Source: Chiloscyllium plagiosum (lineage: Eukaryota). From it: a stretch of DNA of 64,000 nucleotides. The notes beneath the pieces were generated by a model. That model was given only the letters and a program-made list of their open reading frames with translations, did not search any database and was not told where the DNA came from. The stretch is taken from the NCBI RefSeq assembly GCF_004010195.1, contig NC_057716.1, positions 22,879,293 through 22,943,292 of the forward strand, written 5' to 3'. Both the position numbers and the translations under genes were made by a program. Numbering within the stretch: position 1 is the stretch's first letter; the number at the start of each line of letters is the position of its first letter. Below are positions 5,931 to 64,000 of the stretch, in pieces.

Positions 5931-7293
5931 TGTCATTTGAATGAACCTGTTACCTGAACAAACCTGCCCTTTGAACAAAACCATCAGCCCAACTGATCCA
6001 TCACCTAAAATGACCCTTAGCTTTAAACTGAATCAATCACCTGAACGAAGTATGGTCTGCAAAATCCATAGGTCTCTCTTTTGAGTAGGCTAGCAAGTTT
6101 TGAGAAGATTGGAGTAGGCTATACAGTTCAACAAAAAAAAAAATCAGTGACCACGACATCTACTGAAAAGGAACAGCTCAAACCTTTAAATGCAGTCACA
6201 TTTATTTCAACAAACTAACAATTATTTTATGGACCTTTAACCAAAGCCCACAGAGCCATTCCTCCCAATTGTGTAATAGAGTACCAACTTCTCCCAGGGT
6301 ATGTGAGGCCTTCACTAGCCACAAGATAAAACAACATACAGATCATTAAGGACCCATGTCTTCTACCGAAAAGGAATTTTACTCTTAAAATCAGTTGTTT
6401 TCTTTTAAATGTTAAGCATAAAGGGACACAAAGACATGAACTGTAACAGCATGAACTGTGAAACTAAATGTTTATTTTTTAATAACTGCAAATTTTCACG
6501 ATTGCCTCTATTTCTTACTTCCACTGACAAAATCAAACTCTGCATGTACCAGGTACAAAGATGAAGCCCAGTTCTGTTCCTGGCCATTGTAAACAGTACC
6601 AATGCACAGGACACAATTCAGTGCTTTAAATTGTTCACATGAGGAATTGTACAATTTTTGAATTTAGAAATTGCTCCAGATGGAGTCATTATTTTGACAA
6701 TCACACCCCCCCAGCTTTACTTTAATCATGGTTCATTTCCATAAAACAAGAAACTCAAACATTAGTGTAAGCAGGCAGTAGCACAAATGGCTGCAAAGGA
6801 AGAAGGAAGCTCAATGGTGTCACTAGTTATTGCAATTTTTAATTGTAATGATTAAAAATGCAGAGATCGCACAACAGGGACAATTATTAAATTACACCAA
6901 AAACAGTCAACACTGCAAAGCTCACATATTATCTATCCATCCATAAAAACAGTCACATGTGCGAAGTTGTCTGTAGGTACACATAGTCACACGGGCATAG
7001 TCCCATTTGTGCACATACAGACTAGTCGTGCACACTATAGTCCATATCAGAATTATACAGTCAGAGTCACAAATACATGTACAGATAGAAATAATTGTTC
7101 CAATTTGTTCAAAATCCCAGCTTCCAAAGTAGATGGTGGATCATATCAAGTAGCATCTCTCTTCCACTGTTGTCTGACTACTCTCAACCAACCTGTGTTT
7201 GCAAAACTCAGAACAATGGGATTTCATAACTGAAAAGCACTTATAAACAATCCCTAGTGTGTTAAGAATAACACAAACAACCAATTTAAGTTT

Positions 7294-7431
7294 CCTACTC
7301 TGAAGAGTCACTGGCCTTGAATCGTTAACTCTGCTTTCTCACCACAGATGCTACCAGATCTGAGTTTATCCAGCAATTTCTGTTTATGTTTCTGATTTCC
7401 AGCATCCGCTGTTCTTTGTTTTCTTTTGTTT
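7294..7431 (+). mobile_element. Solo PLE pLTR-like module (second family), decayed hammerhead, 14 bp TSD
   Basis: CTGAAGA-GTCACTGGCCTT-GAAT-CGTTAAC...CACAGATGCT...TCCAGCAATTTCTG. ACCAATTTAAGTTT occurs at 7280-7293 and 7432-7445. Confidence 0.7.
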
Positions 7432-8399
7432 ACCAATTTAAGTTTGTCTGTTGAGCTTGCAACATGTCTCATGCTTACTAGACACAACATGTATTTGTAG
7501 ATATGGACCTGTCCCCTACATGAAAGGAACCTGCATGACCAACCAGAGCTGGTTTGCTAACCTGCCTCTCATGAAATATAAACTGATGCTCCCTTTGAAA
7601 TGTGGGATTCTTGCATCTGTCCAGATGATTGCAAGCTGAAAAGTCTTATAGCATATTGCATCCCTTTCCTAGCAATATAAAAGTGAATATGTGTTTGAGA
7701 TGCTAAGTCAAAAACATTCAATTCATATTAATGCTACGTGAATGAATAGACTAATTCTTTCCTCTAATCACAAAGGTTTAGGGGACACATACACAATCTA
7801 GAGTAAACAAAGCAGTTCCAGGTTTGATCACAAAATAAACCAGATAAGAGAGATCACTGGACTTAACTCAAATAATGTAAAAATACTTGGGCTCAATATC
7901 ACATGGTTTGCTCAATAAGTCAACGAGATTCAACTAATGCATTCAAAAAGGATTTCAATTAATATCCGGGAAGGAAGAATATCCTTTTGTGGAGAATGTT
8001 TGAATGTGACACTAAGGATTTTTTCTTCAGAGATAAGCTGAATGGCCTTCTCCTGTCCTGTATCCATTTCTATGATTTGACTTTTTAGTCACGTGGCACC
8101 ACCATTAAACCTTATCAATTGCTGACTAATTTAGCACATTTGGAGGTAGGATTTAGAAGCCTCAGGGAGAGATCTAGGAGATATGAGGAGAATTGGTGAA
8201 ATGCCAGGCTCAGCTATTCAGCTGTCTGACCTGTCTCTGAAGAAATGATCTCCAGTGCCACACATGAACCTTCTCCACAGAAGGATATTCTTCCTTTCTG
8301 GTTATTAACTGAAATCCTTCTTGAATGCATTGATTGATTTGCCTCCACTACACTTTCAGGCAGAGTGTAAACTACCTTCTTTTTCACAAAGACCTGCAC

Positions 8400-10170
8400 A
8401 TTGTTTTCTTCTTTGGTGAAGTTACAGACAAAGTATTAAACACCCTAGCCATGTCCTCGACTTTCATGTATAAATCCCCTTTTGGCCCCTAATTAACTGT
8501 ACTCCTTTTTACTATTTAAATCACTGTGGAAGACTTTCTTATTCCCTTGTACGTTAGCTGCCAGTCTCTCCTGATTTTCTCTCTTTGCTTCTTATTTGCT
8601 TTTCAATTTCCCCGTGATCCTTCTGTATTCAGCCTCATTCACAGTTGCATTGTCCACATGACACCTGTTACAAGTTTGGTTTCCTTTCTTATCTTAAACT
8701 CTATCTCCTTTGAAATTCCAGGATTTATTTGCCATAACTTTCCACTTTCTGGGACTAGACCTTAATTGTGCTTAAAATATTTCTTCTCTTCAAGTCACAG
8801 AGATGCACAGCACGGAAACAGACACTTCGGTCCAACTCGTCCATGTCCACCAGATATCCTCACCTAATCCCGTCCCATTTGCCAGCACTTGGCCTATATC
8901 CCTCTAAGCCCTTCCTATCATATACTCGTCCAGATGCCTTTTAAGTATTGTAATTGTACCAGCCTCCACCACTTCCTCTAGAAGCTCATTCCACATACAT
9001 ACCACCCGCTGCGTGAAAAAGTTGTCCATTAGGTCCCTTTTAAATCTTTCCCCTCTCACCCTAAACCTATGTCCTCTCATTCTGGACTCCCCCATCCCAG
9101 GGAAAAGACGTTTTCTATTTATCTTATCCATGTCCCTAATGATTTTATAAACCTCTATAAGGTCACCTCTCAGACTCCGATGCTCCAGGGAAACAGCTCT
9201 AGCCTATTCAGCCTCTCCCAGTAGCTCAAATCCTCCAACCTTGGCAACATCCTTGTAAATCTTTTTGTGAACTCTTTCAAGGCAGCCCACTGTTCAGTTA
9301 CAGTCCTTTCCAACAAGATGTAATTCCAGTTTATCTGACCCGACTTAAGTTGGCTTTGTCCCATTTAAATATTCTTACTCTAAATTGTTCCTTGTTTTTC
9401 TCCGTAGCCAGTCTAAATCTTATGACCCACTTGATATTGTCAGCTACGTGTTCTCCTCTTGACACCTGATTTGCTCTGGATCACCTTATCCACAAGAACC
9501 AGAACTAATAGTGTTCTTTTTTCTTGAACTGGAAACATTCTCATGGAGAAAGTTCTATCAAAAACACCTCAGGAACTTTTGTCCTCTCTGTCTTTTATAC
9601 TACTATTATTCCATTCCAAATACTCGACAACTGACACATTTCTCTGTAATTTCCTTACACCTCTGTTCCTCTATACCATCCCTATTAGTCAGTAGCCTAT
9701 AGATGACACCTAACAATAGCATCTTTTTCTTTTGTTCCTTAGCTCTAGTCAAAGACATTCTGTCCTCAACCCAGTTGGGACATCCTCTTTCTCCAAGACT
9801 GCGATTTTCTTTTATTAATACCACCAGTCCTTACACTTTTGTTTCTTTCCCATCTTGCCTGAATACCTTGTATCCTGGAATATTTAATAATTAGTCCTGA
9901 CTTTTTGTGAATCAGGTCTCTGACACAGCCATATCATATTTCCACATGGTTATTGGCACTTGTAACTCATCAGCCTTAATAACATGCATTCACATAAATG
10001 CACAGAACCTTGATTTAAACTTTATCAATCTTTCCCAGCTAATAGCATACTATTCTCTACTGTAGTACCATCTGTCTCCCCAGCATTCTGTGCACGTTGG
10101 TAGTTCTATACTCCCCTAGTTCCCATACCACTTCCATGTCACCTTCCTAATAGCACAAGCAAAATTGGTC
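8400..10170 (-). mobile_element. Old CR1 LINE (APE region), interrupted by the younger CR1 fragment
   Basis: Decayed endonuclease-region peptides (e.g. MLLLGVIYR..., EEQRCKEITEKC) on both sides of the insertion. Confidence 0.6.
8793..9280 (-). mobile_element. CR1 (HER1-like) LINE 3' fragment
   Basis: Minus-strand ORF2 C-terminus KRFTRMLPRLEDLSYWERLNRLELF / RGHRFRVRGERFK...FFTQRVV..WNEL, plus a 3' UTR. Confidence 0.85.
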
Positions 10171-10543
10171 CCTCCTCTTTTATGCCAATTCCTTCAGTTT
10201 GTAGTTTTACCTACTGACTGGGTGGAGGGAAGGGAGGAGAGGTCGAGTGTGGTGAAAATTGTTTAAACTGAGGGATTTTCTTTAAATAAGAACACTTACC
10301 TTTACATGTATTCTTCTGCAACAGTGATCTGTCCATCAGGCCACATCCACCATACACAAAATGTGAGGTTTTAAATGTGAGCTACATGCCAGCCATTGTT
10401 CACAAACCTCTTCACTCAGAGATCACTGAGAATGCAGAACTCAACATCACAGCAAGGAGACCAGCTGAATAGCATTTAAGGAGACATGGAAGGATATGTC
10501 GATAGGGTAAGATTAAGATTGAATGGACTTCAAACCAGTTGGG

Positions 10544-11765
10544 GTCGAAAAGTATGGCGCTGGAAAAGCACATCAGGTCAAGCAGCATCCAAGGAACAGG
10601 AGAGTTGATGTTTCGGGCATAAGGAGAAAGTGAGGACTGCAGATGCTGGAGATCAGAGCTGAAAAATGTGTTGCTGGAAAAGCACAGCAGGTCAGGCAGC
10701 ATCCAAGGAGCAGGAGAATCGACGTTTTGGGCATAAGCCCTTCTTCAGGACTGACAGTGATAATCTGCAGTGACGTAGAAAGAACTAACGTAGACTCGTG
10801 ATGTGAAAATCTTGGAGAAAAGAGTATGGGAAGTGGCTCGCATAAGGGAGAGTTGGAGGGTTGGATCTAGGATGAGGGGGGGGAAGGAGGATGAGGTGGG
10901 GGAAGGGAGATGAGGAAACTAGTGAAATCACGCTGATGGCATGCAGTTGGAATGTCCCCAAGGTAGAAGGTGAGGCGTTCTTCCTTCATGCATCAGGTGG
11001 CCAGGATTTGAAGGTGGAAGAGGCCTATGACTTGCATGTCCATGGCAGAGTGGAAGGGGGAGTTGAAGTGGTCAACCACAGGGCAGTGGGGTTGTTTAGT
11101 GCGTGCGTCTCAGAGATGTTCTCTGAAACATTCCACAAGTTGATGTCATGTCTCCCCAGTGTAGAGGAGACCACATTGAGAGCAACAGGCACAGTAGATG
11201 AGGTTCGAGAGTATGTTGCTGGAAAAGCACAGTAGGTCAGGCAGCATCCAACGAGCAGGAGAATCGACTGAAGGACTCCGGTCTGAAATGTCAATTCTCC
11301 TGCTCCTCGGATGCTGCCTGACCTGCTGTGCTTTTCCAGCAACACACTCTCGACTCTGATCTCCAGCATCTTCAGACCTTACTTTCTCACAGTAGATGAG
11401 GTGTTTGGATATGCAGGAGAATCTCTGGCAGATGTGGAAGGATCCTTTGGAGCCTTGGATGGAGGTGAGGGGGAGGTGTGGGCGCAGGTTTTAAACCTCT
11501 TGTGGCAGCAAGGAAAGGTGCCAAGAGTGGAGAATGGGTTGGTGGGTGGGGTGGGGGAGTGGCGTGACCTAACAAGAGAGTAGCAGAGGGAATGGTCTCT
11601 GCGGAACACTGATAAGGGTAGGGTGTGAAATATATCTCTGGCAGTGGGGTCTGACTGTTGGTGGTGGAAATGGTGGAGGATGATGCATAGTATCTGGAAA
11701 TTGGTGGGGTGGAAGGTGAGAACCAGCGGGGGCGGGGGGGAGGAATTCTGTTCTATCTTCCTATG
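10544..11765 (-). mobile_element. 5'-truncated Penelope-like element (Neptune-type): linker and GIY-YIG remnant plus tandem pLTR/hammerhead modules, 16 bp TSD
   Basis: Minus-strand peptide PLVLTFHPTN...SDPTARDIF...FRRDHSL...GTFPCCHKRFKTC is typical of the Cys-containing Neptune linker, followed by a decayed GIY-YIG. Two pLTR-like units lie at 10544-10750. CTTCAAACCAGTTGGG flanks it directly at 10528-10543 and 11766-11781. Confidence 0.8.
11205..11387. mobile_element. Fold-back (inverted-arm) non-autonomous PLE-derived element nested in the PLE, 15 bp TSD
   Basis: TGTTGCTGGAAAAGCACAG..GGTCAGGCAGCATCC..GAGCAGGAGAAT is followed by its reverse complement and the tail ...ACTTTCT. CACAGTAGATGAGGT occurs at 11190-11204 and 11388-11402. 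Confidence 0.8.
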
Positions 11766-11999: not shown

Positions 12000-12113
<114 letters not shown>

Positions 12114-12454: not shown

Positions 12455-13120
12455 ACATCAAAGCAAAATATCGCAAATTCTGGAAAAATTGAAATAAAGA
12501 GGAATTGCAACAAATATTCAGAAGGTCAGGAAGTATCTGTAGATGGATAAACAGAGTTAATGTTTCAGGTCCATGACCTTTCATCGGAACTGGAAGAGAA
12601 TTGAAATGAGCAATTGAAATGCGGGCAGGGTGGGAAGAACAAAGGGAAAGGTCTGCAGTAGAGTGAAAAGCAGGAAAGATTAAATGACAAAAGGGTTCAT
12701 GGTGTAAGGCCAAAGTGAAAGGCAATGGGCTAAGTAAGGAAACTAAAGGAGTCAAGAGTAGGAGTTATACAGGATCTTGAATAGTTGCTATTTGAAACAA
12801 AGAGGAAGAATTAAAAGAAAAACAAGAGAGAGAAAAACGCAGCAAAGAGAAAGGAAACAAACTGGGGACATGGGCTACAATCAAAAATTGTTGAAGTCGA
12901 TGTTGAATCTTGATGGTTATGAAGAGCACAATTGAGAAATGAGGTGCTGTTCCTGGAGCTTGCAGTGAACACAGCAGCAATTCAACAGCAGAAAGGTCAG
13001 AGGGGTAACAAGGAGGGAAATCGAAATGACAGGAGGCAGGAAATTCCGGTTGTGCTTATAGACTGAGGGAAATGTTCTGCATTGGGTGTCCCCAGCATAT
13101 AGGAGATCTTACTATGGTTA
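12455..13120 (-). mobile_element. Decayed Neptune-type PLE 3' end with pLTR
   Basis: Minus strand shows a GIY-YIG C-terminal remnant (GGAACAGCACCTCATTT...AACATCGACTTCAACAATTT), a pyrimidine-rich UTR and GTTCCGATGAAAGGTCATGGACCTGAAACATTAAC. Confidence 0.65.
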
Positions 13121-14169: not shown

Positions 14170-14630
14170 GGCTACAGCTCAGACGGTATCCCTGTATTTC
14201 ACCCAATTGGCCATTTTTCACACTTAATGCTGAATAGTGATTGCAAGATGCCTGCTCACCCATGGGGCATTGCACTGAGCCTCAATATTTTCTGTCTCAA
14301 CGTGTCCTCACTCACAATATTAATCATGCTATTCACCCCATCTCTGAACACATCTTTTACTTCTTTATTTGAGCCATCACCATTCCTTTTGGTGTTGCAC
14401 CACAAAACATTTTGGTGTAATCTTTCCTACCCTCTACCCAATCTCAGACCTTTCCATTTGTTTTACTTCCCACCTTCCATGCTTTCTCATGCTTAAAGCC
14501 TTTAATAATTTTTAACTTTTCTCCCCAGTTCCGATGAGATAGATCTGAAATATTAGCTCTCCTTCTCTCTCCATGTATTGACAAGTTAAGGTTTTCCAGC
14601 ATTTCCTGCTTTTGGACTGCATGGACCATT
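14170..14630 (+). mobile_element. Highly decayed PLE 3' end / pLTR
   Basis: Pyrimidine-rich UTR followed by CAGTTCCGATGA...CTGAAATATTAGCTCT...TTTTCCAGCATTTCCTG, similar to the element at 12455-13120. Confidence 0.5.
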
Positions 14631-19540: not shown

Positions 19541-20749
19541 TCAAATTGTGCCATTCTTTGGGGCTGGGGTGGGGAAACAATGAGTTAATAAGTGCTTCTC
19601 CACTCCCTCAACACTCCTGGGTTAGTGTTAAAGGCTCTGCATAGTTATCAGAAAGGTCTGAGGATAGTCTAGATAAAATTCAGTGCAAATAGTCACTTAG
19701 TAGTTCAGAATCAGGATTATTATCAAAAGAGGGAGATGTTGTTACATTTTTCATCTTGCACTCATCAGGACAGATGCAAGAAAGCCAAATTGCAAAAGGA
19801 ACAACAATTTATACTGCATGAGGAAAATAAGGTGTTTAAAATTTGGCAAGTGGACTTCCATTGGTCAAGTCTTCATCATGAAGGATGCACCAGGGAACAG
19901 TTATTCCATAAGCTTTTGTTTAAATTCAGAAAAGTAAAGATAACCCTGAATGGTTGAGGCATTGTTAGCGAATGCAGTATAAAATTATGGGATTTTACCT
20001 GCATTGTTTCATGACTGGTTAACACTGGATATTGAAATGGACAAACAGAAACAAGTGAAAATTATAGGAAAGGAAAACAGAACCTCTGTATGGTAATCCA
20101 AAATCCACCTACAGACTGGAGTTAATAGAGAATGAATAAAGGAGAATAAATCACAAACAGGAATTCATGAATCAACAGAGTGTTGAGCATTGGCTCTCAG
20201 TCTAACTCTGACTCAAGTTTTAAATTATCATTCTTATTTTTAAAACCTTTTGCCTATTATTGTAACCTTATCCAGCCTTACAACCCACTCCAGTATTTCC
20301 ACACCTCTAATTCTGGCTTTTCTTAACACCCCTGATTTTTTAAACTCTGCCATTGGTGACCATTACTTCAGATGCCATGGCTTCTAGGCTTTTGATTTCT
20401 CTCTCTCAACCTCTAACTCTCCGAACCTTGGAAATTCTCCTCACAAACTACATCTAACCAACACTGGTTCACTTGTCCAATTTTGACTCATTTGGTTCAG
20501 TGCCAAACTTTGTTTGAAAATACTTTACTATTTTATTAACACAAGATTTTGTGGCTGTGAATAAAGTGACTATCTCCAATAAAAATTAAAGAATGATTTT
20601 CATTTTTAAAAAATTTAACCTATTTTTCTAATCAATCTGTTTAGAAACATTATTGCACACCACTAGAGCAGGTGGGACTTGAACTCAGGCCTCCCGGTCC
20701 AGGGGTAGGGTAGAAGATGATCACTGCACACAAGAGGGTGCATAAATAA

Positions 20750-25583: not shown

Positions 25584-25915
25584 GCACGGTAGTTCAGTGG
25601 TTAGCATTGCTGCCTCACAGTGCCAGGGATCCAGATTCGATTCCAGCCTCGGGTGACTGTCTGTGTGGAGTTTGCATATTCTCCCCGTGTCTGCATAGGT
25701 TTCCTCCGGGTGCTCTGGTTTCCTCCCACAGTCCAAAGATGTGCAGGTTAGGTGAATTGGCCATGGTAAATTAACCATAGTGTTCAGGGGTGTGTAGTTT
25801 AGGTGCATTAGACAGGGGGAAATGTAGAGTAATAAGGTCTGGGTGGGTTACTCTTCAGAGGGTCAGTGTGTGCTGGGCTGAAGGGCCTGTTTCCATACTG
25901 TGGGAATCCTAATTC
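25584..25915 (+). mobile_element. tRNA-derived V-SINE (HE1-like)
   Basis: A/B-box head, V-domain TGTGTGGAGTTTGCA..TTCTCCCCGTGTCTGC...GGTTTCCTCCCACAGTCCAAAGA and a CR1-like tail GAAGGGCCTGTTTCC. Confidence 0.85.
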
Positions 25916-33000: not shown

Positions 33001-33170
33001 AATAGACCAGTTGAGGTTTTGATGGATTCATGTTGTCTTATGCATTTAACCCTCAACCTTTCTACTCCCAGCATCTAAAATAACCTGACCTCTGTTCAGT
33101 GCCTTGCCAAATGCAACTCATGCCATAACGTTCTCTCGGTCACAAGTGAATAAAACAACCTCAAGCTAAA

Positions 33171-33330
33171 TCTGAAAATGTGTTGCTGGAAAAGCGCAGG
33201 TCAGGCAGCATCCAAGGAGCAGGAGCATCCTGCTCCTTGGATGCTGCCTGACCTGCTGCGCTTTTCCAGCAACACATTTTCAGCTCTGATCCCCAGCATT
33301 TGCAGTCCTCACTTTCTCCTAGAAGATTTT
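33171..33330. mobile_element. Fold-back PLE-derived element, 14 bp TSD
   Basis: Near-perfect inverted arms of about 55 bp (CTGAAAATGTGTTGCTGGAAAAGCGCAG...GGAGCAGGA / TCCTGCTCC...CATTTTCAG) with a 3 nt spacer (GCA). AACCTCAAGCTAAA occurs at 33157-33170 and 33331-33344. Confidence 0.85.
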
Positions 33331-33714
33331 AACCTCAAGCTAAAAACAACACAACTAATTTTAAAACATAAATTGGTGCCCTTGCACTGAAAATCCTCAG
33401 AAGTGTCTAGCTTGGCTAATCCGGCAACCTGGATGGGTATGATTTCTTTTTTGAAAAGAGGTACCTATTCAATATGTAGTCTCGGGCAGAGTAGCTCAAT
33501 AGAATGCAGATCGTTAGGTTACAATGAAAACCTAACAAGCTGTAAGCCGTTTCAAACATAGCATTCTTGTTATATTTAGAAAATGTTTCTCGACAAATTC
33601 ATTTCTCTCTTACTTTAGTTAGCTGGGTATCTAAAATAGATAGAATTTCGTGTGCATCGTCATTTCTGAGGCCTACTGAGAAACTCTGGTATTTTAATGT
33701 CAGTCATAGTACAG

Positions 33715-35747: not shown

Positions 35748-35910
35748 CTTCCAGTTGTCTGTTCAACACACCACTGGTTTCCATCCCAACGTTTCTATCT
35801 CAGATCTGGTTCAATGAAGGTTAACACTATCGGGGAAACAACACCTCAACTTCCACTGAGGTACCTTACAGCCTTCAGGACTTAACATCGAATTTAACAA
35901 TTTCACAATG
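35748..35910 (+). mobile_element. PLE GIY-YIG C-terminal fragment
   Basis: AACAACACCTCAACTTCCACTGAGGTACCTTACAGCCTTCAGGACTTAACATCGAATTTAACAATTTC resembles QHL.F..GTLQPSGLNIEFNNF. Confidence 0.6.
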
Positions 35911-38860: not shown

Positions 38861-39497
38861 AGTTTTGCTCATGTTGGGTATCGGGTCCTTCATTCTGGTG
38901 AGTTGTTGTCTGAGCGTGCTGTTGGTTTTGTGTGCCGTTATGAGTCCTAGGGGTCGCAGTAGTCTGGCTGTCAGTTCTGAGATGCTCCTGATGTATGGTA
39001 GTGTGGCTAGTCCTTTTGGTTGTGTATTTCCTCGTTTCGTTGTTTTCCTCCGGTGTTTCTCGTTGTCTGTCCCTGCCGCTTCCGGTTGTCAGTTTCAGCT
39101 GTCTGCTGTAGTGGTTGGTATATTGGGTCCAGGTCGATGTGTTTGTTGATGGAGTTTGTGGATGAATGCCATGCCTCTAGCAACATGAATTCGACTGGGA
39201 CAACACTACTATCATAGGGCAAGCCAGACAGAGAACAGCCAGGGAATTCCTAGAGGCATGGCATTCATCCACAAACTCCATAAACAAACACATCGACCTG
39301 GACCCAATATACCAACCACTACAGCGGACAGCTGAAACTGACAACCGGAAGCGGCAGGGACAGACCACTATAAACACCGGAGGAAACATCAAAGAAGCGC
39401 TTCGCAGGAGGCTCCCAAGCACTGATGATGTCACCTAGCCAGGGGACGAAACGTTTGCAACAAAAACTTCCAGCTCGGTGAACAGAACCACAACAAC
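38861..39497. mobile_element. Penelope/Poseidon-type PLE insertion with inverted 5' part and hammerhead-bearing 3' end
   Basis: Minus 38861-39022 encodes QPKGLATLPYIRSISELTARLLRPLGLITAHKTNSTLRQQLTRMKDP (RT-endonuclease linker). Plus from 39181 encodes QHEFDWDNTTIIGQARQRTAREFLEAWHSSTNSINKHIDLDPIY (GIY-YIG C-terminus). 39044-39180 is the inverted copy of 39250-39387. Confidence 0.85.
39419..39458 (+). ncRNA. Candidate minimal hammerhead ribozyme in PLE pLTR
   Basis: GCA-CTGATGA-T-GTCACCT-AGCC-AGGGGAC-GAAA-CGTT-TGC: intact core, stem II with one mismatch, palindromic AAACGTTT, 3 bp stem I. Confidence 0.6.
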
Positions 39498-39579
39498 ATT
39501 TCAATTGATTTCAATTCTGCTGTAATCTTCCTTGTGCACTGCTCACAGCATTGCCCAGGAAATTAATTTCAAAATTGAA

Positions 39580-41552: not shown

Positions 41553-43064
41553 AGGGTATTACATCGTACTCTTAACCTGAGCTTTGTAGATGGTGCAGAG
41601 ATTGAGGGAAAGCAGGTGGTGAGTTAGTCATTGCAAAATTTCCTGTCTCTGATCAGCTCTGGAAGCTCGAGTATTTTTATGGCTGGTCCAATTCTGTTTC
41701 TGGTCTATACCAGTGCTTAAGCTCTGCACAATTTCCCTCCCTTCATTTACCCATCATTCTATATCCTTCTCCCTCATGTACTTTTGAAGCTTTATCTTGA
41801 ACACTTCTATGGTAACTGCCTCAATTACTCCATGTCATGGCAGCTTACTATTTGCAAATTATAATTTCATCTGCATTGGGCAAGAATAAACTTGCCTCCA
41901 AAGGAGGTTTTCAGTAACTTGATTCACCTAATGATGAAATTCTGCTTATGCAAGACAACAGATTAACTGGGGAAATCCTGCAACACATCTCTTTATTCTT
42001 GCTTTTAGGCATCTTAAATTTCATTTGCTTCATCACTGGTAGCTGTAATATCAGCTGCCTCAGCCCTCAGTTATGCAATTCCCACGTTCAACCTCAACAT
42101 CTTTGTACCTCTCCAGTCATTCAAAATGTTGCTTTAAACAAAACACTTTGACTGAGCTTTCAGTTACTTGTCTTAACATGTTTTTATACAGGAGTACTGA
42201 ACCCTTGGGCATTGCTAAAAAAGACATTTTGTTGCAGCTTTTCATCTTGCATTCATAAGGACAATTAGCAAGACAAAAAGATTCAATAGACTATCTCATT
42301 ATTCAGTAATATTGCTTTATAGGGTCCAATGTCAAATTGTAGTTCAGTCTGACAATGCTCCTACGAAATGCTTTGGGCAATGTTCATATGCTAAAGGTGC
42401 ATAGATGCTAAACACAAATTATTTTTGTACAGTCTTAATACTCATTGGATGCAACGTCCTGTAGCAAAGTGATTGTACTGTATTTGAGAGCTATTTGAGG
42501 CAGCATCATACCAGAATCGTATTCAACCATTTTTCCCCATGCTGGAGCCCTCCCGAGTGGCCCTGGGTTTGATATGCTTATTGGTGAACTCTGACTCAAT
42601 ATTATCTCTGAACCAGAAGGTCACAGGTCCAACCCATTAAACCACAGAAACTAGCTGATAGTACTGAATAGTAGCAAGAAACTGCCTCCATGTCAGAGGT
42701 GCTGTGCACCATCTCGGGTGGACACCCATGGTGTTGTACATTATGTTTATCAAATTATTTAGTGAATAAAGTGATAGCAACGTAGTATTTTGTGGAGTAG
42801 AAATGGGCATATCAACTCAACAAAAACAGAACATGCTTGTTGGAACTTTCTGCAGGAATTCAAATATAATAGAAACAAACTGAAAAGCATCCTCAATATT
42901 TCAGTATGTGCCCCTAGGTACGTTTCACACCAAGCCATAGGATTCAATTTGAGTTATAGAGCAAAATGGCATAACTCAACAATTATCTCTGAACCAGAAG
43001 GTCACAGGTCCAACCCATTAAACCACCAAAACTAATTGGTACTGTAATGCTGGAATTCTGACAC

Positions 43065-43160
43065 AATAACAGTACTGGGGATATTCAGCAGGTCTGGCTA
43101 TATCCGCAGAGAGATAGAGTTAATGTTTTGATCCCCACAAAGTTTTTCTTCAGAACTGGA
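43065..43160 (-). mobile_element. Decayed PLE pLTR-like module
   Basis: TCAGCAGGTCTGGC...GAGTTAATGTTT...TCTTCAGAACTGG, same family as 7294 and 55388. Confidence 0.55.
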
Positions 43161-44233: not shown

Positions 44234-44580
44234 GGGTGGCACGGTGGCACAGTGGTTAGCACTGCTGCCTCATAGCGCCAGAGACCCGGGTTCATTTCCC
44301 GCCTCAGGCGACTGACTGTGTGGAGTTTGCACGTTCTCCCCATGTCTGCGTGGGTTTCCTCCGGGTGCTCCGGTTTCCTCCCACAGTCCAATGATGTTCT
44401 GGTCAGGTGAATTGGCCATGCTAAATTGCCCGTAGTGTTAGGTAAGGGGTAAATGTAGGGTTATGGGTGGGTTGCGCTTCGGCGGGGCGGTGTGGACTTG
44501 TTGGGCCGAAGGGCCTGTTTCCACACTGTAAGTAATCTAATCTAATCTAATCTAATCTAATCTAATCTAATCTAATCTAA
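44234..44580 (+). mobile_element. Young V-SINE with (AATCT)n tail
   Basis: Intact A box GGTGGCACAGTGGTTAG, B-box-like GGTTCATTTCCC, V-domain, retained CpGs and a perfect pentamer tail at 44533-44580. Confidence 0.9.
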
Positions 44581-47395: not shown

Positions 47396-49240
47396 ACTCA
47401 CTAGTTATAAGTGGCTGCACTGAACAGAGTACAGTTCAGAATTCTATCCCCAACGTTCCATCTAAGTGCTATGAAATTCGAAGCATACATACATCGCACA
47501 TTTCTGGTGTAAGGACACAGTTTATCTAATTACTTGGAAAGAATTATTTGGACTGCTGTGGGAATAGCGACTACACCGCGTATACAATAGCAGGGGGGAA
47601 AAAAACAAGCAAGTAAGCCTGAGGGAACTTTCAAATCAATTAACGGTCCAGTCAAGGTCCAATTTTATCACGAGCTGCTTGCAGGAGACTGTATCTTTTA
47701 CATTTGAGTAATGTGCAGCCTTTTAACTATTCTACGAGCAGCTTTTTTTTTTTAAAAAAAGGCTTTACTATTGAGTCCCGTGGTCATAAAAGCTTAAGGA
47801 GGAGTTTACAGGGGTCACACTCCATCTCCAAGTCTGACAAATACCTCAACAATCACTAATAACATAGTTACAAGGTTTCTCTTAAAGGAAAGCTTTATTC
47901 AAACCAAAGAAAATCCTATTAAAGACACTATTATCACAACCTCAGTAAAACACACACAATAAGCAATTTAAAAGGCTTGAATTTTTAACACTGACTCCTT
48001 ACTGCCCTCAGCAACTTACAGACTCCTGAAAGCACTGCCATTGAAATAGATTCATGTTCAAATATAGATTCTTGCTCCTGCTGCTTTGCCTTCACATCAG
48101 TGTCCTAATATTCCCTGTGAAGATACATTAACAATGTAGAGAGACTAATGGGAATTTTAATCGGAGTCCATTTCTTCATACATTTACTTTTTCATTATCA
48201 ACCGTATAATTTAATTTGATTCACTGCGAATTTTAACAGGGGGAGCCGGTGCTGCTTGTAAAACAGGATGGATTCAAAGGCAGCACCAAATCATTTGATT
48301 CTCAGAGACCACTTCTAATAAGTGAATAACATGCTTTCTATGCTTTTTATTCTTGATAACATCTTTCACTTGTCTACTTTCTAGCACATTTTTAAACTAT
48401 AATGGTGTGTGTACCCCTTGCAATACAAAAAGCATGAACATGCAGCTGAATGTGGATTGTTGCAATTCAGACCAGGAGTGAATCAGGTTCAATTTCACAT
48501 TGAATTTCAAGCTGAGGTTCGGCTCAGCACCCTCATATGAAAAGGGAGTGGGGGAGGGACGGCAAAGACAAACATTTATGCTCACTCTTCACTTGCTTTT
48601 GTATACCGACATTGGGGTTCGCTCTAAAACTAAGAGCAGACAAGCAGCCCCATGATTTAGTGCAGATACACAGGCTATAAACAGCCATTTGACTGTATTG
48701 AAAGGCAATCAGGTACCTGTGACATTGGGCTCCAGAAAGAATCAGACCTCCTTCAGAAGAAGAAGGGGGAGAGGGGAGACCAGAAAGTGACAAAGGCCCT
48801 ATTACAACCCTGCTTCCCATTTGTTTTATTGTTACACAAAGCTGCTACACTCCACACTATTGCCGCCTTGGCCAGCAGACATTTCAACAATCACGTACCA
48901 CTTACTTCTTTCATGCGAAAACTATTCTGACAGCTCCACGTGCACCAGACTGGGAACCTTTTGCCAAAATAAGACATTCAACTTCTGCAAATATCAACAT
49001 CAAATTCATTCCTCCTTGAGTGTAAGATTCTGGCAATATGACTCACAGACACATAAAAAAATGCAAAATTTGTAGGTACCAATGTCTAAGATATTCTTGC
49101 CTCTCTTAATGCAATAGCATGACTTGGTAGCATAGGACAAGGAACATTTATAAAATAGAGATATTTCCATTTTGAGTATTAAATTTGTATTTTTGCATGT
49201 AGCCACTACGTTTAAAGATTGGTGTGGATTCATCTCCTGA

Positions 49241-49338
49241 GTTGAAAAATGTGGTACTGGAAAAACATAGCAGGCCAGGCAGCATCCGAGGAGCAGGAGA
49301 ATCGACGTTTCAGGCATAAGCCCTTCTTCAGGACTCTC
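49241..49338 (-). mobile_element. Solo PLE pLTR-like module with intact minimal hammerhead core
   Basis: Same family as the fold-back arms. The minus strand begins GAGAGTC-CTGAAGA-AGGGCTTATGCCT-GAAA-CGTC-GATTCTC. Confidence 0.8.
49297..49338 (-). ncRNA. Candidate minimal type I hammerhead ribozyme (sense to AGAP1 pre-mRNA)
   Basis: Core CUGAAGA and GAAA; stem II GGGC/GCCU with UUAU loop; palindromic ACGU stem III with a GUC cleavage triplet; 7 bp stem I GAGAGUC/GAUUCUC. Activity is untested. Confidence 0.6.
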
Positions 49339-53160: not shown

Positions 53161-53389
53161 TAATCCTTCCATTAATGTTTCTGAATGAAAGTCAACATGG
53201 AGACAAGGATCTGGAGCAATACTGGAACACAAATATTAGACCATAGGAAGTCTGGATCATTTATAACAGGTACACCATAAGCCAGGAAGCACAGGCAACA
53301 CTGATTTACTAATTTTACAATGGCTATTCTAAACAGTTCAGAGTTCACTGTCATGGTTAGGAGAGCTCACCTGAATGCCTGAATCAGAT

Positions 53390-53579
53390 GTGGTGCTGGA
53401 AAAGCACAGCCAGTCAGGCAGCATCAGAGGAGCAAGAGAGTTGATGTTTTGAGCATGAGTTCTTAATCAGGATCATTGAATTGTTCCTTGGTCCTTGGAT
53501 GCTGCCTGACTGGCTGTGGTTTTCCAGCACCACACTTTTTGACTCTGATCTCAAGCATCTGCAGTCCTCACTTTCTCCA
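53390..53579. mobile_element. Fold-back PLE-derived element, 13 bp TSD (1 mismatch)
   Basis: An inverted copy with a decayed hammerhead is followed by a forward copy ending CACTTTCTCC. GCCTGAAT(C/T)AGAT occurs at 53377-53389 and 53580-53592. Confidence 0.8.
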
Positions 53580-54988
53580 GCCTGAATTAGATTCCAACCT
53601 ATAATGCACTCCCAGGCATTTACTGTTGGACATACAGACCACTCCAAACCCTTTGATTATGTTCAAGAGAAGTAATTAACTCCTGCATACCTGTTATAAG
53701 TTGCTAGCTTGCACTTTATTTTTGGGTGTCTATTATTGTACTGATTAATACATCGGTATACCACTCAAACACTCGATTAGATTTCAGCCTCTCACTCCTC
53801 ATATCTTATTATTTTATATATACACCTATATATCTAAACATATACCAACCGAAATTTTGAACAGATTTCAGCCAGTAACTCTTTCTGGGGGTCCATTATT
53901 CCCTATTGAAATAGGGAGAGTATGTCAGGATGCAGAAGGGTAGTATGGTTACTTTTGATGTAAATTTCCTAGCTGTCTTGTGTGCAGGATATTGAGTTAA
54001 CTGCAAAAGTTGCGATACAGGAAAAAGTATAAGTATTTCAGCTAGTGATTTGCCAATGCGAAAAAAAATCTAAAATTTAGATTTAAAAAGGAAAGAAAGA
54101 AACTTATTCTGTGAATTCCATTGTGAAAAACAAAACTCTCAGTGTGCTCTGTGCTTCATTCAGAGAAGAAACTCAATGAGACTCCACATGTCAAGCCAAC
54201 ATAAACCTAGAATGTCAATGTTACATTGCTTAAGACAACATTCAACTTCATTTTAAAAAGCAGGATTCAAAAAAGAAAAAGAAAATGATTCTGTCTGAAC
54301 AAACACCACATGACTGTCAAAATACCTTTTTTGCCTGATTGCATGGGGAAGATTGACACAAAGCCCACACTTGCAGCTGTCAAAAGAATTTCCCCATCCC
54401 CCATATTGAAGCAAGTAAGTTAATTTGCACATTAGTTGAGGGGTTACTGAAGCCTCTTCATTAGAGATTGCAAACAAGAGCAAATAGTCAGTGCACTGGC
54501 CATCGTTATCAGAACTAATTGCCTCAGCTTGGCAAGTGGAGGTAGTCGTGTTCAGATGTCCTCTTGCATTGGCAAATTGGGGCCAAGTCAAACAATATAC
54601 GAGATCACAAGAGTTCTGTTCAATGATCGGATTCAGACACTCGCCTATTTCAGTTCCAACCATGGCACTCCGACAAAGCTGGTCTTTGAAGCATTCCAAG
54701 CTGGAAGCACTCCATATGCAGATAGGGCTGCAGATTGCAGTTAATTAGACCCAGTTCTTAATACTTCCCACGGTGTCGCGAGCATCTTACTCTAATGATC
54801 TTACTTTAGCACGTTTAGGGCCCAGCTAATTGATGTCAAGTGTGCAACTTCTATGTTAATGAAATGGAAAGCATCAAATAAACAGAGAGAGGGGAAAAAA
54901 CAAGAGGCAGGTTACAGAGTTGAAACCATGTTGCTCCATGCCTCCAATTAAAAGGAGCAGTGGGGAGAAAGGGAAAACAGCACCTTAC

Positions 54989-55081
54989 CTGCTTAATTGG
55001 GATTGCTCGGCCACTCCCAATACTGTCTGCTCTGGTGTCAAGATTTTTCTTCTCCTTGTCTAGCTCACTTCCTTTTCGAGA
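54989..55081 (-). CDS. AGAP1: AGAP1 coding exon (93 bp; start of PH domain)
   Basis: ttttctttttctAG|TCTCGAAAA...ATTAAGCAG|GTaaggtg translates SRKGSELDKEKKNLDTRADSIGSGRAIPIKQ, with the AGAP-family motif SIGSGRAIPIKQ. Phase 0/0; the upstream intron is 3197 bp. Confidence 0.97.
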
Positions 55082-55387
55082 CTAGAAAAAGAAAATGACC
55101 ATTGTAAAATAGCAAGGATTAAAAGTTACAAGATACCAAGAAACTTTGTGCACGAACAACTTGATTTAAATACAGTACTGCAAAATGTTAATGGCACTTT
55201 TAGTCCCTCATTACATTACTGAGTCACATAAGTGAGAGACAGAAGATTTACATTATTTGTTTGATGAATATTCGCTTCTTTGTTTTTTTCAGAGAATTAT
55301 TGGAACTGAATTTATTTCACCCTAAGAAGCTGAAGATGAGCAGCCTTTGAACTCTGCAGAGTACCAAATCCAGGGAAAGAGACGTCA

Positions 55388-55492
55388 GAAGCAAAAACAG
55401 AAATTGCTGGTAAAACTCAGCAGGTCAGGCAGCATCTGTGGACAGAAATCAGAGTTAATGTTTTGGGTCCAGTGAGCCTTCTTCAGAACTGA
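55388..55492 (-). mobile_element. PLE pLTR-like module, hammerhead core eroded by CpG decay
   Basis: Minus strand GTT-CTGAAGA-AGGCTCACTGGACCC-AAAA-CATT-AAC; the expected GAAA-CGTT has CG>CA changes. Confidence 0.7.
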
Positions 55493-55679
55493 TTTTTTAA
55501 AAACCAACCATCCTAACTGAGCAGGGAGTGCAATCAGGACCCATTGCAGGGCTTGTGAAGACAGGGCTAAAGGGTCAAGAGCCAGATAGGAAGCCAGAAA
55601 AGATAGGCCTGGAGGAGATGGAGCTGCACAGGGGCCAGGGGAGGTAGGCTGTCTAATCCAAGTTTTGAAACACCAACTT

Positions 55680-58245: not shown

Positions 58246-58434
<189 letters not shown>

Positions 58435-58851
58435 CTACAAAGCAGAGAAGAAAGCAATTAAAGATAGGAAGAAAACTGCCCTGTGTCATTTAAGACATAT
58501 GCAAGTTATACTCTGGTCAGCTGTGGCCATCTAGCCTCAGGGATGTTGTGGGTTACTGTCCCACTTCAGAGACGTGGGCACATAATTGGGGGCCAGTCTT
58601 CCAGTGCAGTACTGAGAAACCGAAGGAAATGCTGGCTTTCAGATAAGGCGTGTACTCAGGTGGGGTCTTGCTGTGCATCATTTCAGAATGGTTACACTTC
58701 AGTAAGCATACTTACACATTAAGAAACAACAACAAAAAGTTATGGAAATATTCAGGAAAGAGACAGACAGCACTGGGGAAAGAAAGAGAGACTTGATGCA
58801 TCTGGCAAGATGACCTTTCATCATAATTTTCATCAGAACAGCAAACAGATA

Positions 58852-58978
58852 ATGAAGGGCTTTTGTCCGAAACGTCGATTTTTCTGCTCCTCGGATGCTG
58901 TCTGACCTGCTGTGCTTTTCCAGCACCACTCTAATCTAGACTCTGGTTTCCAGCATCTGCAGACCCTCACTTTTGCCT
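58852..58978 (+). mobile_element. PLE pLTR-like module truncated inside the hammerhead core
   Basis: ATGAAGGGCTTTTGTCCGAAACGTCGAT...GGATGCTGTCTGACCTGCTGTGCTTTTCCAGC...CCTCACTTTT. Confidence 0.75.
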
Positions 58979-59980: not shown

Positions 59981-62707
59981 TCCATTGGTGGAATTTTCCA
60001 TCAGTGACAGACTGCAAAAGCAACCATGCTATTCCCCTGCCTGCCTCTCTATTCTCCCCACTACCAAATACTCCTGAGGAAGGTGTAATTAACGTAAAGC
60101 ACAACTCAAGAAAGTAAAGCTAGGATTCAAACATAAACTGATGCTTTGTCTTACTTGGGTCAGATTTGAAACGAAAAAAAAAACACAAGAATATTGAAAC
60201 AAGAATATTCCTCTTCATGCCTCCCCACCCAGTGATGCCTCCTGAAAATGTGAATGTTTAACTCAATCTAGGGATGTGAATGTCACATGGCAAGGCTGGC
60301 ATTTAGTGCCCACCCCTAACTGGTCTTTGAGTTGTCGTAGAGATTTACTTTGACATAAACTGCCATAAGTGGATGAAGGATGTGGATAAAGATTTGGGGC
60401 ATACTGCCATCTTCTAAACATACACTTGTCCAAGTCTATTGTGGATCTCCAAAGACAACATCAGTATTGAATCCTTAATCAATAAAGTCGTCTTTTTTCG
60501 GTCTAAAATGATGAAACACCTCTAACCCTACAAACCAATGTTTCCACTAAATTCTGCATTCTTCATCAAGGGTGGTACAAAACATTTTAAAGGTCTGCAC
60601 ACCTAAATAAATTGTCCTTGTACTACAAGAAAAATACAAGAATGGTATCTACAAAGCTCCCTGATCTCAACTTTCTTTCAACATTGGGGATGTGCAAGAG
60701 CCAATTTTGATTGCTCCACCATTGGCAATTGTGACTTTGGATTTCTATACTCTACATTCTAGAATCTCCTCTGCACACTGCCTTATCTCTCTTTCGCTCC
60801 TGACCTCCTCATCCAATTTTTTGGTCACCTCTCCTAATTATCTTGACATGGCTGCGTGCTAGATTTTTGTACAGTGTCACTCCAGTGGATCATCTTGGGA
60901 AGCTTTATTGTGGTGATACTAAATGAATACAAGTTGCTGTTGCTGAGTAGTTTTGGCCCCTCATGACGATGATAGAATCACTGTTCCAATTACAAATATT
61001 CACAATTCATGTTCCATTCTTACATTTGGCGAGCAACAGTTCTCATATTGTCCCAATACTAATTTTGACCTGTTCACTACAACAATTCAGGCACATGTAA
61101 GATGATTTCCTTTTTAATATCTCACTGTTTTATTGAAAGAGCTTAATCCCTGTTTGCAGCCCCAACAGTAAAACCGTAGCCACAGATTAGACGCATATGA
61201 AAACTGCAAGACCCACCCATGCCCTATCGCTCTATGTTGCAGATTCCTCATGCACCATCTAGCTATAGCTCCAGTATGCTACCAACAATTAAAGGCAGCA
61301 TTTGTTCCAACACTTGGAATCTGTAAATCACTGTGGTTCATTGTGGAGCTCATTAACATTTGCAGCATTGCTTCTATCAGCATCTGCTTAAGCAGTAGAT
61401 TAATAGAATTGAGAAGCCAAGTTTGCTTTTCTTTCAAATCAACCTTTGCCACAGTCAACCACCATTCTCAAATAAATTAAAAGATATATACTGAAAGGGT
61501 TTACTTTGCACCGAGAAGGACAAACAGAAAAAAAGAGAAAGAAACAGTCGGGAAAATCTGCAGGGACAGGGTAGTCGGAAACTGGAACATACTGGAAGAA
61601 AGCAAAGAGAAACTAGGAGAGAGATTGGGGAGAAATTGGTAGAAGAAGGGGAAAATCTATCAGACAATCAGAAGGAACTGTCAGCTGGGCGAAATTAATG
61701 TTTAAAGTTTCAAGCTGAGTTGTCAGGTGCCCTACACTTTAGAATTACCTTGCCAAGCTTTGACTGGGTGCATTATCGGATAAGCTGAGCAATGAAGAGG
61801 TACTGCAGTAGCCTATCTTATTTAAGGACATAGATATACCTCAGTTTTCATGAAAACTAAACACTAAAAGTTTAAATTTAAACATGCTCGTGCTTTTCCA
61901 AGTTTACCATGACAGAGCTGTGCAAATCAATTAGTCACACCACCATTCAGACCATTGATTGGAGCTCAATTCACAGGCAATTTAAATAATTCAACAGACA
62001 ATCTCAATATTGTTGTCACTGTAGAATCATTTGTTTATTGATAAAATAAGGTTCACAAGAGAACATTAAAAGAAAACTCGTTACAAAAGGGAATTGACAC
62101 CAGGCACTGACAGAAAAGAAAATGTTTGCTGCTTCTGTTTTTCCCACAGTTGATATTACTGACACTTGAGGTTGAAATTTCAGGTCAAACGGAATGAAAG
62201 TATCAGTATTAGCCAACATGCCAGTTTCCCAACGCAGTGCCCATTACCATTGAGCCCATTACCATTGGGGAGTGAGGGCAACAGCACACTTTTGCTCAAC
62301 CCATTACCATGGCTATTAAGACCACTGAAGAGCTCATTGAGGGCACATTCTGATTTTGAGAGAAGTGTACAAATAGCCAAATGAGACATATAGGCAGTGG
62401 AGAGCCAGTCATGACAATCCAGGGATACCAGTGGACCTCACAAAAGGGCGAAAAGTAGAATGGTGAGATGAAGGTTTGTTATTCACACACAGGAATCAGG
62501 CCAGTGCACACTGTGGGGAGTTTTGTTAGCAAGCACTTTAGCAGTGTGGGAAAGTTGCCACCCAGCTGGCATCAATGAGCAAAAGGAAGTTGGGGAGGTG
62601 GGGAAGAGGGATCAAGGATTTCAAATATAACGGAAGGTAAATTAGGAGAGCACCTGAAAATAGGTAATGGAGTCAGGCCTATGCCTTTCCAAGTGCAAAT
62701 AACACAA

Positions 62708-62785
62708 AGTTAAAAATCACACTACACCTGGATATAGTCCAACAGGTTTATTTGGAAGTACTAGTTTTCAGAGTGTTGCTCCTTC
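62708..62785 (-). mobile_element. PLE pLTR-like fragment (further family)
   Basis: Minus strand TGAAGGAGCAACACTCTGAAAACTAG...AATAAACCTGTTGGACTATA...GTGATTTTTAAC, flanked by AATAACACAA and AATAATGCAA. Confidence 0.55.
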
Positions 62786-64000
62786 AATAATGCAACAAAA
62801 TGATAGCCCCAGTAACAATTGCTGTGATCCGCTTACATCGCTTGCACAATCCCATCTTCATGCCATCAAATGGATATTACACCTATATTCGTGCCTATTA
62901 AGTGGGTTCTAGCATAAAACTCAGGGTTGGTATTCCTACTGCAGAGGTGGATGCGGGACCCAGAAATAGTCCCTGTTTCAGTCCTTGATTTCCCATTACA
63001 TTTAATTAACAAAACCTTTCCCAATCTCACTTTATTGACACAACTTATGCAGTTATTGTCATCAGAACTGGGTAGATTCTGATAGAAAGCCTGATGTTTG
63101 TTGTGCATTTCATGCAAATTCAATCAAGTTTCCTTGGTTTTTATTCAACTGGAGTAACTTTCCAAGACTTTGCACTTGTTATAATTTTCTCAAGGTGCCT
63201 TCCATAGTCTGGATTTGCAATTACCAGTGACAGCTTTACCTCGCAAGAGTGTTAGACCATGAGACAATATGAAATAAGAACAGAAGCTAGCCATTCAGCC
63301 TGCTCCACCATTCCATAGTATTGTGGGTTAACCCGAGATTCTTCATGTCCACTCTCCTGCATTTTACCCATAACCATTGATTCTCCTATTGATCAAGAAT
63401 TTATCTCAGCTTTATATATATATAAAAATTGTCTCTGCCTCCTTAACTTTTTGTGGTAAGTGGTTCCAAAGACTCAACCCTCAGAGAAGACATTCCTCCT
63501 CATCGCAGTCTTAAATTGGTGTCCCTTAATTCTGAGATACCCTTCAGTCCTAGGATCATTAAGTGCTATGTTTTTAGGAAGGATTCAATGTGAGGACTAG
63601 ACTCATTTACTGTATTAATGTTTCATCCTGGCTCGATACTGCAACTGTCTTCATTGAGCTGGCCCTGTCCACTGCCACATAACCTCAGTCAGATGGACTG
63701 GGAATTCTATGTGCTTATCTGTGAATATTGCGGTGCCTTCATTTATTTTAGCAGTCCTGTCTTTAGCAGGAATGCTTTAAAAAGTTTGGGCTTACTGAAA
63801 TTCTAGCTCCCTTCCCGCATTAAATGGCAAAGAAATACAATTTATTCACTAAAGGTGCGTCTGCCAGACATGGTGATGTGTGGTGCAGTTTCAATACAAT
63901 ATGTTAGACACATGCATACCTATGCTCTCCCATTTACATTAAAATATCACCCAAGGTAAGAGGAGAGCAGGTACCATCTCTGACAGCTCGGGCAAATATT

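Follow-up and report, generated by a model that had tools for sequence, protein, structure and literature searches.

Hammerhead stubs in the introns of a shark gene: probable run-off products of coding Penelope-like elements

Modules of about 90-140 bases, built around the motif of a minimal type I hammerhead ribozyme, are spread through gene introns in a 64-kb stretch of the Chiloscyllium plagiosum genome (contig NC_057716.1, positions 22,879,293 to 22,943,292; this whole stretch is the window, and positions below refer to it). Do such repeats form a retrozyme-like system of non-autonomous, ribozyme-processed elements, as a first-pass annotation of the DNA proposed, or do they derive from protein-coding Penelope-like elements? 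Our analysis indicates that the solo and head-to-head copies (stubs) are very probably by-products of coding elements. Taken as a whole, they are probably dead-on-arrival run-off products of the coding elements' reverse transcriptase (RT); the run-off step itself, in which RT copies to the RNA's own 5' end, is favoured with slightly less assurance.

Profile hidden Markov models (HMMs) were made from the top genome copies of five families, A to E, and a single copy of the hammerhead module is called an arm. The genome was sampled as 100 evenly spaced 10-kb stretches of the 27 longest contigs (958.6 kb readable; large contigs only). This sample contained 276 arms (A 138, B 60, C 22, D 51, E 5), which occupied 2.9% of bases and occurred in 86 of the 100 stretches, and extrapolation to 3.56 Gb gives about 1.0 million arms (bootstrap 0.87-1.18 million). 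Fully intact motifs numbered 29, against 0-1 per shuffle in 20 shuffles, or about 1e5 genome-wide by extrapolation, and the 48 head-to-head pairs per 0.96 Mb extrapolate to about 1.8e5 hairpins.

On sequence grounds, the five families are the terminal module (pseudo-long terminal repeat, pLTR, with the start of the open reading frame, ORF) of protein-coding Penelope-like elements: A, B and D of Neptune type, C of Poseidon type and E of another RT-GIY-YIG type. The Neptune and Poseidon labels rest on the CxxC linker (PMC8557442), other motifs and nearest matches. In family A the module lies downstream of the CxxC linker and GIY-YIG endonuclease in 11 of 12 long loci, which had been picked for long frames, and one locus (L206) is continuous from RT to the A module and is flanked by a 13-bp target-site duplication (TSD). 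Homologies of the family A element cover RT, PF26215 and GIY-YIG, and the nearest protein relatives of the elements are in carpet sharks. RT followed by a C-terminal GIY-YIG, upstream of the module and on its strand, is supported for A, C, D and E, and for B through endonuclease remnants. A Poseidon-type GIY-YIG end stands upstream of 50/73 family C arms. Family B has Neptune-type GIY-YIG remnants 335-513 nt upstream in 4/120 arms, four further matches being neighbours or unrelated pieces. In 13/25 loci family D lies beyond a second Neptune-type ORF, separated from it by a long CA-rich untranslated region (UTR); one of these loci is probably the neighbour of another family. In L068, L159, L268 and L279 a 3' UTR of 700-800 bases with a CA-rich microsatellite separates the ORF from the promoter region. 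Family E gave no match with the Neptune and Poseidon protein panels or in a word-indexed search; its relatives emerged from a full HMMER search, which returned 348 homologues including an RT protein and GIY-YIG proteins, and a coding remnant lies upstream in 13/60 arms. No intact full-length ORF was seen in the elements of any family; open frames of 734-1513 aa turned up at three places in the genome but consisted largely of runs of N and were discarded.

The family A module is also found ahead of the coding region. In five loci (L018, L208, L223, L250 and L273) the module passes through its tail into the N-terminus of the ORF, as in a partial tandem, and in L208 the frame opening in the stem II loop is that of the ORF, with one stop. 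Since the A module stands both after GIY-YIG and before the ORF start, it occupies either end of the element. No such continuity from module to ORF start was seen for family C among 25 tailed copies. At their 3' ends the modules stop at two fixed positions, one short and one with a tail of 30-40 bases. That the modules were mobilised by the RT and GIY-YIG endonuclease of Penelope, as had been proposed, is borne out: they were inserted by Penelope machinery.

The 5' ends of the stubs bear most directly on how they arose. Position +5 relative to the core is reached by 105 of the 132 scorable A arms, and 58 of these 105 end by -10, about five times the 0.0065 per base found further upstream; B and D have the same peak. 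Scored column by column, similarity to the upstream sequence is no better than chance beyond -4 to -7 in A (n=122), -7 in B (61) and -9 in D (51), an edge we call the wall. A TATA-like box starts at -35 in A, -35 in B and -39/-41 in D, and initiator (Inr)-like words lie at the wall; both labels are assigned by general consensus. The walls of A, B and D thus fall 28-32 bases after the TATA-like box. These upstream words point to Pol II, in line with the proposed independence from Pol III, and status as short interspersed elements (SINEs) was rejected. The 5' ends are not enriched at the ribozyme cut site: 4/132, 4/60 and 4/50 fall within 3 nt of it, counts that resemble those of neighbouring bins.

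Head-to-head pairs show a second regularity. The sample has 48 head-to-head and two tail-to-tail pairs; 94/276 arms are head-to-head, and exactly one arm carries the tail in 40/47 head-to-head pairs of A, B and D (p 5e-7). None of 52 paired A arms passes -18. A TSD abuts the front edge in 7/32 A and 6/33 B solos, against 2/160 and 3/165 in controls, and the junctions often contain microhomology.

We suggest that the wall would be the transcription start, so that the element RNA would begin with the hammerhead. RT would start inside the first 90-130 bases of this RNA and run off its 5' end. Priming at the front copy of the module would give a strong-stop-like cDNA and its immediate integration, whereas the longer, 5'-truncated copies would come from priming at the rear copy. 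A head-to-head pair with one tail would result when both target strands are primed, with one start site for each. The stubs lack the upstream promoter box and would therefore be dead ends; paired stubs would fold as long hairpins, and the ribozyme would matter only in a tandem master RNA. The most specific form of the proposal is that Neptune-type RNAs start with the hammerhead and that what their retrotransposition mainly yields is a copy of the RNA leader. The priming of this strong-stop-like cDNA would lie 90 or 130 bases from the cap and would often involve the two target strands together, with one start site per strand; around a million promoterless stubs would be the result. We offer this form of the proposal tentatively, at somewhat less than even odds.

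The same 5' ends could be explained if all stubs were 5'-truncated from the rear module copy and the pile-up marked a hot spot for stopping or processing, such as a fold edge, the C-rich UTR or an ATT-like nick. The 36/132 A arms that run on into the UTR and the frequent microhomology at junctions fit this account, as does the lack of a cap G. The anole endonuclease favours ATT near the ORF-pLTR junction (PMC11167929), and family A has ATT at its wall, but B and D do not. A fold edge would suit A and B, whereas the wall of D lies 6 bases outside its 3-bp stem I. The common distance of all three walls from the TATA-like box and the absence of paired A arms beyond the wall, against 36 unpaired ones, also speak against a hot spot. 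In favour of it, as regards the pairs, Arkhipova et al. (PMC3846280) derive head-to-head junctions from self-priming on an antisense template. On this balance we consider the hot spot unlikely, though not negligible.

Several observations weigh against the run-off of RT at a transcription start. Families C and E have no 5' wall, with 1/21 C ends in -1..-10, and the walls of A and B coincide with the 5' edge of stem I. No excess of G from cap copying precedes the putative start (11/50, against a flank G frequency of 0.28). The shift in D is seen with mismatch-tolerant estimators only, the exact-run estimator giving none (median 2, versus 3 in A). The upstream library of B comprises 5-7 copies of one subfamily, so that some B 'solos' are ORF-linked (that at 12575 is one) and the B peak is inflated. 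Continuity from module to ORF was found for family A alone. The tree described below likewise covers family A alone, with 89 columns and 55/99 forks open, and some of its 'solos' may be ORF-linked copies of a subfamily missing from the library. Transcript starts or ends did not pile up in one raw polyA single-cell run, of which 2% was read, a weak test. PolyA reads of both families examined cross the cut site. A set of 165 reads breaking at A at -4 was not counted as support, as it includes a subfamily whose UTR diverges there.

The preferred account, in which stubs are run-off products of coding elements, has to be set against an independent, ribozyme-processed population spreading through its own, possibly circular, RNAs. 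Very high copy number, TSDs, discrete ends and a covarying fold are what a retrozyme would show, and a 2026 preprint describes pLTR-related tandem retrozymes whose hosts include one cartilaginous fish. Retrozymes are tandem, and neither the HMM arms nor Tandem Repeats Finder (TRF) revealed an array in the window; the sample has 11 irregular same-strand neighbours within 600 nt among 276 arms. The sole direct tandem in the sample is a pair of family C units, 226 bases apart and both with hammerheads (L255:2125-2462). Units start upstream of the core and not at the cut site, and in the third of arms that are head-to-head the antisense arm would pair with the ribozyme. Joints expected of circles amounted to two back-joined reads at most in the polyA single-cell run, a run unsuited to circles.

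Lineage structure was examined in a tree of 102 family A arms, of which 33 are solo, 35 are paired and 34 continue into the UTR; arms with more than 20 gaps or short cover were left out. The labels change 49 times on the tree, against a shuffled mean of 48.6, and 119/200 shuffles were as low; supported subfamilies contain all three labels. Solo, paired and ORF-linked A copies are thus intermingled, and there is no solo subfamily. The view that the solos might be plain 5'-truncations holds in part: family A solos are not separate from ORF-linked copies, but they are not plain random truncations, as their 5' ends heap before the ribozyme. The claim of a ribozyme-processed, non-autonomous population with lineages of its own is not supported, given this intermingling in A, the coding elements that all families terminate, the lack of arrays and ends that lie off the cut site. 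A retrozyme reading of the stubs is not supported; it is largely refuted for A and highly improbable overall.

A form without RT does exist. This internally deleted A derivative, 0.93-0.96 kb from hammerhead to hammerhead, retains the promoter region and two direct hammerheads and was found in eight places (L335-L342, namely G000 C8:72.23 Mb and seven others; 40 candidates scored). Five of the eight share kilobases of flank and so represent one duplicated locus, for which reason a large family was rejected; three have other flanks, two of these with a different breakpoint. At about 0.95 kb, this derivative is truly non-autonomous and the best retrozyme-like candidate. Either it or the two-unit C tandem could qualify as a retrozyme in the sense of Li et al. 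2026 (bioRxiv 10.64898/2026.07.22.740005); compared with the stubs both are rare, and neither occurs in the window. The stubs, unable to spread themselves, might have been copied in trans from short transcripts of such derivatives or of truncated copies that retain the TATA-like box. The upstream box survives in about a quarter of arms (73/276), the derivative occurs with different flanks in at least three places, and in a rotifer pLTR sequences are reported to be enough for mobilisation in trans. Supply in trans nevertheless seems improbable: the family A tree has no solo-only lineages, most derivative places trace to a single duplicated locus, and tandem master copies would give the same pattern without extra steps.

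Whatever their route, the modules carry a hammerhead at the family level. The minimal hammerhead core (CUGANGA, GAAA and UH with helices I and II) is present, and the stem II signatures are GGGC in A, GGUC in B, GUCACCU in C, GGAGC in D and GUGCAAG in E. An extra unpaired base between positions 9 and 10.1 is found in every counted copy of A (119/119), B (23/23), C (28/28) and D (29/29), and the first pair of helix II, G10.1-C11.1, is kept as G-C or as CpG-decayed G-T; family E has no extra base, and its helix II is just 2 bp. Helix III is a palindrome, ACGU in A (82/119), C (19/28) and B (6/23), AGCU in D (17/29) and AAGCUU in E (3/13), with departures due mostly to CpG decay. Compensatory changes were counted by script over all collected copies with intact core words, a count rather than an R-scape statistic. 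Between families, stem I pair 1 is C-G, U-A or A-U and pair 2 is U-A, C-G or A-U; within family C, pair 3 is G-C in 20, U-A in 5 and C-G in 3 (28/28 paired), and in family A it is U-U. That the modules are minimal type I hammerheads of Penelope origin, having an extra base, a palindromic stem III and covariation between families, is upheld at this level, apart from the missing base in E. In folding predictions stems I and II form at 49331, and a dimer reaches a double-hammerhead fold at -18.7 kcal/mol, against -25.5 for the lowest-energy fold; such folding is uninformative on cleavage. In family E (window 19750-19785, minus strand, and other copies) eight bases directly 5' of stem I complement the stem II loop, and this complementarity is possibly a pseudoknot or a competing fold; the palindrome has 6 nt.

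Individual copies are mostly decayed. Core words are intact among spanning arms in 47/91 of A, 8/38 of B, 11/19 of C, 7/32 of D and 1/5 of E. Within families the core columns are, by inspection, about as variable as the others, and broken pairs are mostly the result of CpG decay. As the core is no better conserved than the rest, selection acted on the masters and not on the copies, a pattern that also tells against a retrozyme. Family C is young, its 40 best genome copies being 98-99% identical across 250 bases, with both tailed and tail-less ends.

In the window a structural descriptor for the minimal type I hammerhead gave four matches at a score of at least 7, against a mean of 0.07 and a maximum of 1 in 30 dinucleotide shuffles. 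The profile HMMs detect 24 arms of five families (A 10, B 8, C 1, D 1, E 4), of which 23 score at least 20, the cut-off adopted later. The modules and their neighbouring remnants are as follows.

7215-7679, plus strand: end of a family E element; with the B insert skipped, its body matches that of other E copies as far as about 405 nt ahead of the core
7294-7431, plus strand: family B solo with decayed core and 14-bp TSD (7280-7293 / 7432-7445), inside the family E element body
7566-7679, plus strand: family E hammerhead arm with altered core, part of the 7215-7679 element
10539-10753, minus strand: two family A arms, head to tail; 10753-10623 is tailed with G12>A in GAAA, and 10623-10539 lacks the core
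10909-11729, minus strand: decayed end of a Neptune-type Penelope ORF (CxxC linker and GIY-YIG), of which the A arm at 10753 is possibly the own 3' end
11203-11389, both strands: family A head-to-head pair within the GIY-YIG remnant, cores broken, 15-bp TSD (11190-11204 / 11388-11402)
12496-12968, minus strand: 5'-truncated element comprising a family B module (12592-12496, U4>C) and a B-type endonuclease-end remnant (12813-12968)
14526-14615, plus strand: weak, old family B arm, score 21
19693-19960, minus strand: end of a family E copy, including a TATA-like box; intact core words (19768), 3' strand of stem I and palindrome decayed
33173-33321, both strands: family A head-to-head pair, neither arm with a hammerhead core, 14-bp TSD (33157-33170 / 33331-33344)
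34781-34864, plus strand: weak family E arm; the same strand carries a C-terminal remnant of an E-type protein at 34263-34304
38840-39499: young Poseidon-type insertion (family C), with an inverted, rearranged ORF piece at 38840-39183 (minus) and, on the plus strand, a GIY-YIG end followed by a TATA-like box and an intact hammerhead (39422)
42191-42273, minus strand: family E arm, altered core
43044-43158, minus strand: family B arm, decayed stem II and GAAA
46980-47077, plus strand: weak family B arm, score 26
49239-49335, minus strand: family A solo with intact hammerhead (core 49331) and short, tail-less 3' end, no TSD found
53386-53578, both strands: family A head-to-head pair, broken cores, 13-bp TSD (53377-53389 / 53580-53592)
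55365-55493, minus strand: family B arm, GAAA>AAAA
55680-55748, plus strand: short family B arm starting within the upstream UTR, with a 9-bp direct repeat at its ends
58718-58828, minus strand: weak family B arm, score 19.6, under the later cut-off
58852-58974, plus strand: family A arm that begins inside the core
62705-62789, minus strand: family D arm, core start lost

The multi-family population is therefore real beyond chance, and a family member stands at all ten positions that the first-pass annotation had named. Its statement that the catalytic core words are kept does not survive, as CUGANGA and GAAA are both retained in 3/23 arms (19768 minus, 39422 plus and 49331 minus) and the complete fold in 2/23 (39422 and 49331). 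GAAA has become AAAA at 10720 and 55460, CUGA is altered at 12575 and 55697, the arm at 7298 lacks the extra base and GAAA, the core start is gone at 58855 and 62770, and the arm at 19750 has lost stem I and the palindrome. Stem II at 58855 reads GGGC-UUUU-GUCC and not GGGC-UUAU-GCCC as given earlier. Many modules had also been described as solo, without ORF and with their own TSD, which fits some copies only. Among 16 window insertions examined, five have direct repeats (14 bp at the 7301 solo, 13-15 bp at three head-to-head pairs, 9 bp at 55693) and 11 have no TSD; 39419 adjoins an ORF end directly upstream, 12575 has its endonuclease-end remnant at 12813-12968, and 7566 is likewise not an ORF-free solo. 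The Poseidon-type insertion at 38840-39499 terminates at the short, tail-less 3' end.

An Rfam scan of the window gave no hammerhead family match, and sub-threshold Rfam microRNA matches at 33186-33270 were rejected as the hairpin of a family A head-to-head pair. Pfam gave no match for the window frames of the decayed Penelope ORFs, which were then assigned through similarity to retrieved proteins. Two insertions are nested, a B stub in an E element (7280-7445) and an A pair in a Neptune-type endonuclease remnant (11190-11402), and an isolated remnant of a Neptune-type endonuclease C-terminus lies at 35836-35904 (plus strand) with no module found beside it.

The modules are intronic because the window lies in an AGAP/centaurin-gamma gene, three exons of which are on the minus strand, in agreement with the earlier placement throughout introns.

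12009-12113, minus strand: host exon, start of the AGAP/centaurin-gamma PH domain (Pfam PH E 6e-4; PDB 2rlo E 3e-13)
54989-55081, minus strand: predicted host exon preceding the PH exon (splice-site scan)
58279-58434, minus strand: predicted host exon (splice-site scan)

The two predicted exons are tentatively assigned to AGAP. A and B modules contain pyrimidine-tract-AG words resembling splice acceptors. Several proteins named as host-gene isoforms contain Penelope pieces (P0008, P0026, P0123 and P0124), which hints at exonisation or mis-annotation. A separate repeat family of about 200 bp, 85-90% alike, occupies 25584-25784, 34581-34752 and 44239-44444 and resembles a V-SINE; a (TAATC)n run follows the last copy at 44533-44580. 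Decayed fragments like those of long interspersed elements at 29126-30294, 8788-9265 and 27480-28518 are presumably of CR1/L2 type, judging by their motifs.

The class to which the stubs belong, ribozyme-tipped ends of truncated Penelope elements, is already known. Cervera and de la Pena 2014 (PMC4209133) described single minimal hammerheads in families, most 'probably related to truncated PLEs', as well as closely spaced pairs on opposite strands. Their motifs share with ours the extra base at 9/10.1, the G10.1-C11.1 pair, the palindromic 15.2-16.2 and several covarying families per genome, with thousands of motifs per vertebrate genome. They reported 4,000-9,000 motifs in coelacanth and Xenopus, compared with about 1e5 intact motifs and 1e6 arms here, figures that are extrapolated and come from different descriptors. 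That paper describes neither a 5' wall nor a one-tail rule for pairs, and no shark appears in its main text. Our literature search, with repeat libraries, subscription papers and key supplements outside its scope, found no paper that names sharks for Penelope hammerheads or describes a 5' pile-up.

The coding elements resemble endonuclease-bearing (EN+) Penelope-like elements. According to Craig et al. 2021 (PMC8557442) and Arkhipova et al. 2013 (PMC3846280), these have RT with a C-terminal GIY-YIG, a CxxC linker in Neptune, 5' truncation, partial tandems, an inverted head-to-head copy, a 30-40-bp tail at one end and solo pLTRs. The latter source also places TATA, Inr and the first codons inside the pLTR, and transcription of a downstream copy from the upstream pLTR is described in two others (PMC2377424, PMC6765202). 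Unlike in those elements, the commonest product here is a stub that stops at an Inr-like base. For the anole Poseidon element PAc in vitro, Frangieh et al. 2024 (PMC11167929) showed that the ORF starts in the hammerhead, that ribozyme cleavage is not required, and that RT extends both target strands. In their system the tail is defined by two internal start sites of RT, which lie some 110-120 nt inside the ORF. As in family A, the PAc module serves as front and rear of the element. That study concerns 3' ends and reports no 5' pile-up; here the Poseidon-type family C has no wall, whereas the Neptune-type families have one.

Animal non-LTR retrozymes (Cervera and de la Pena 2020, PMC7229834; Li et al. 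2026) are alike in their type I hammerhead, lack of coding capacity and pLTR kinship, and monomer derivatives are common. As defined there, they are tandem units, at least two with complete and mostly canonical ribozymes, expressed as circles, whereas the stubs are single or head-to-head with minimal motifs. Li et al. is also the preprint that reports pLTR-related tandem retrozymes with one cartilaginous fish among the hosts.

The stubs constitute a very large natural record of Penelope integration, a process that is still poorly understood. The 5' wall predicts the transcription start to the base, and the one-tail rule ties two priming sites known in vitro to two target strands. If the leader-cDNA reading is true, the ends of the stubs show where transcription starts and where the two priming sites lie in vivo. 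About 3% of the genome and some 1.8e5 hairpins should accordingly be annotated as Penelope stubs and not as SINEs, microRNAs or retrozymes.

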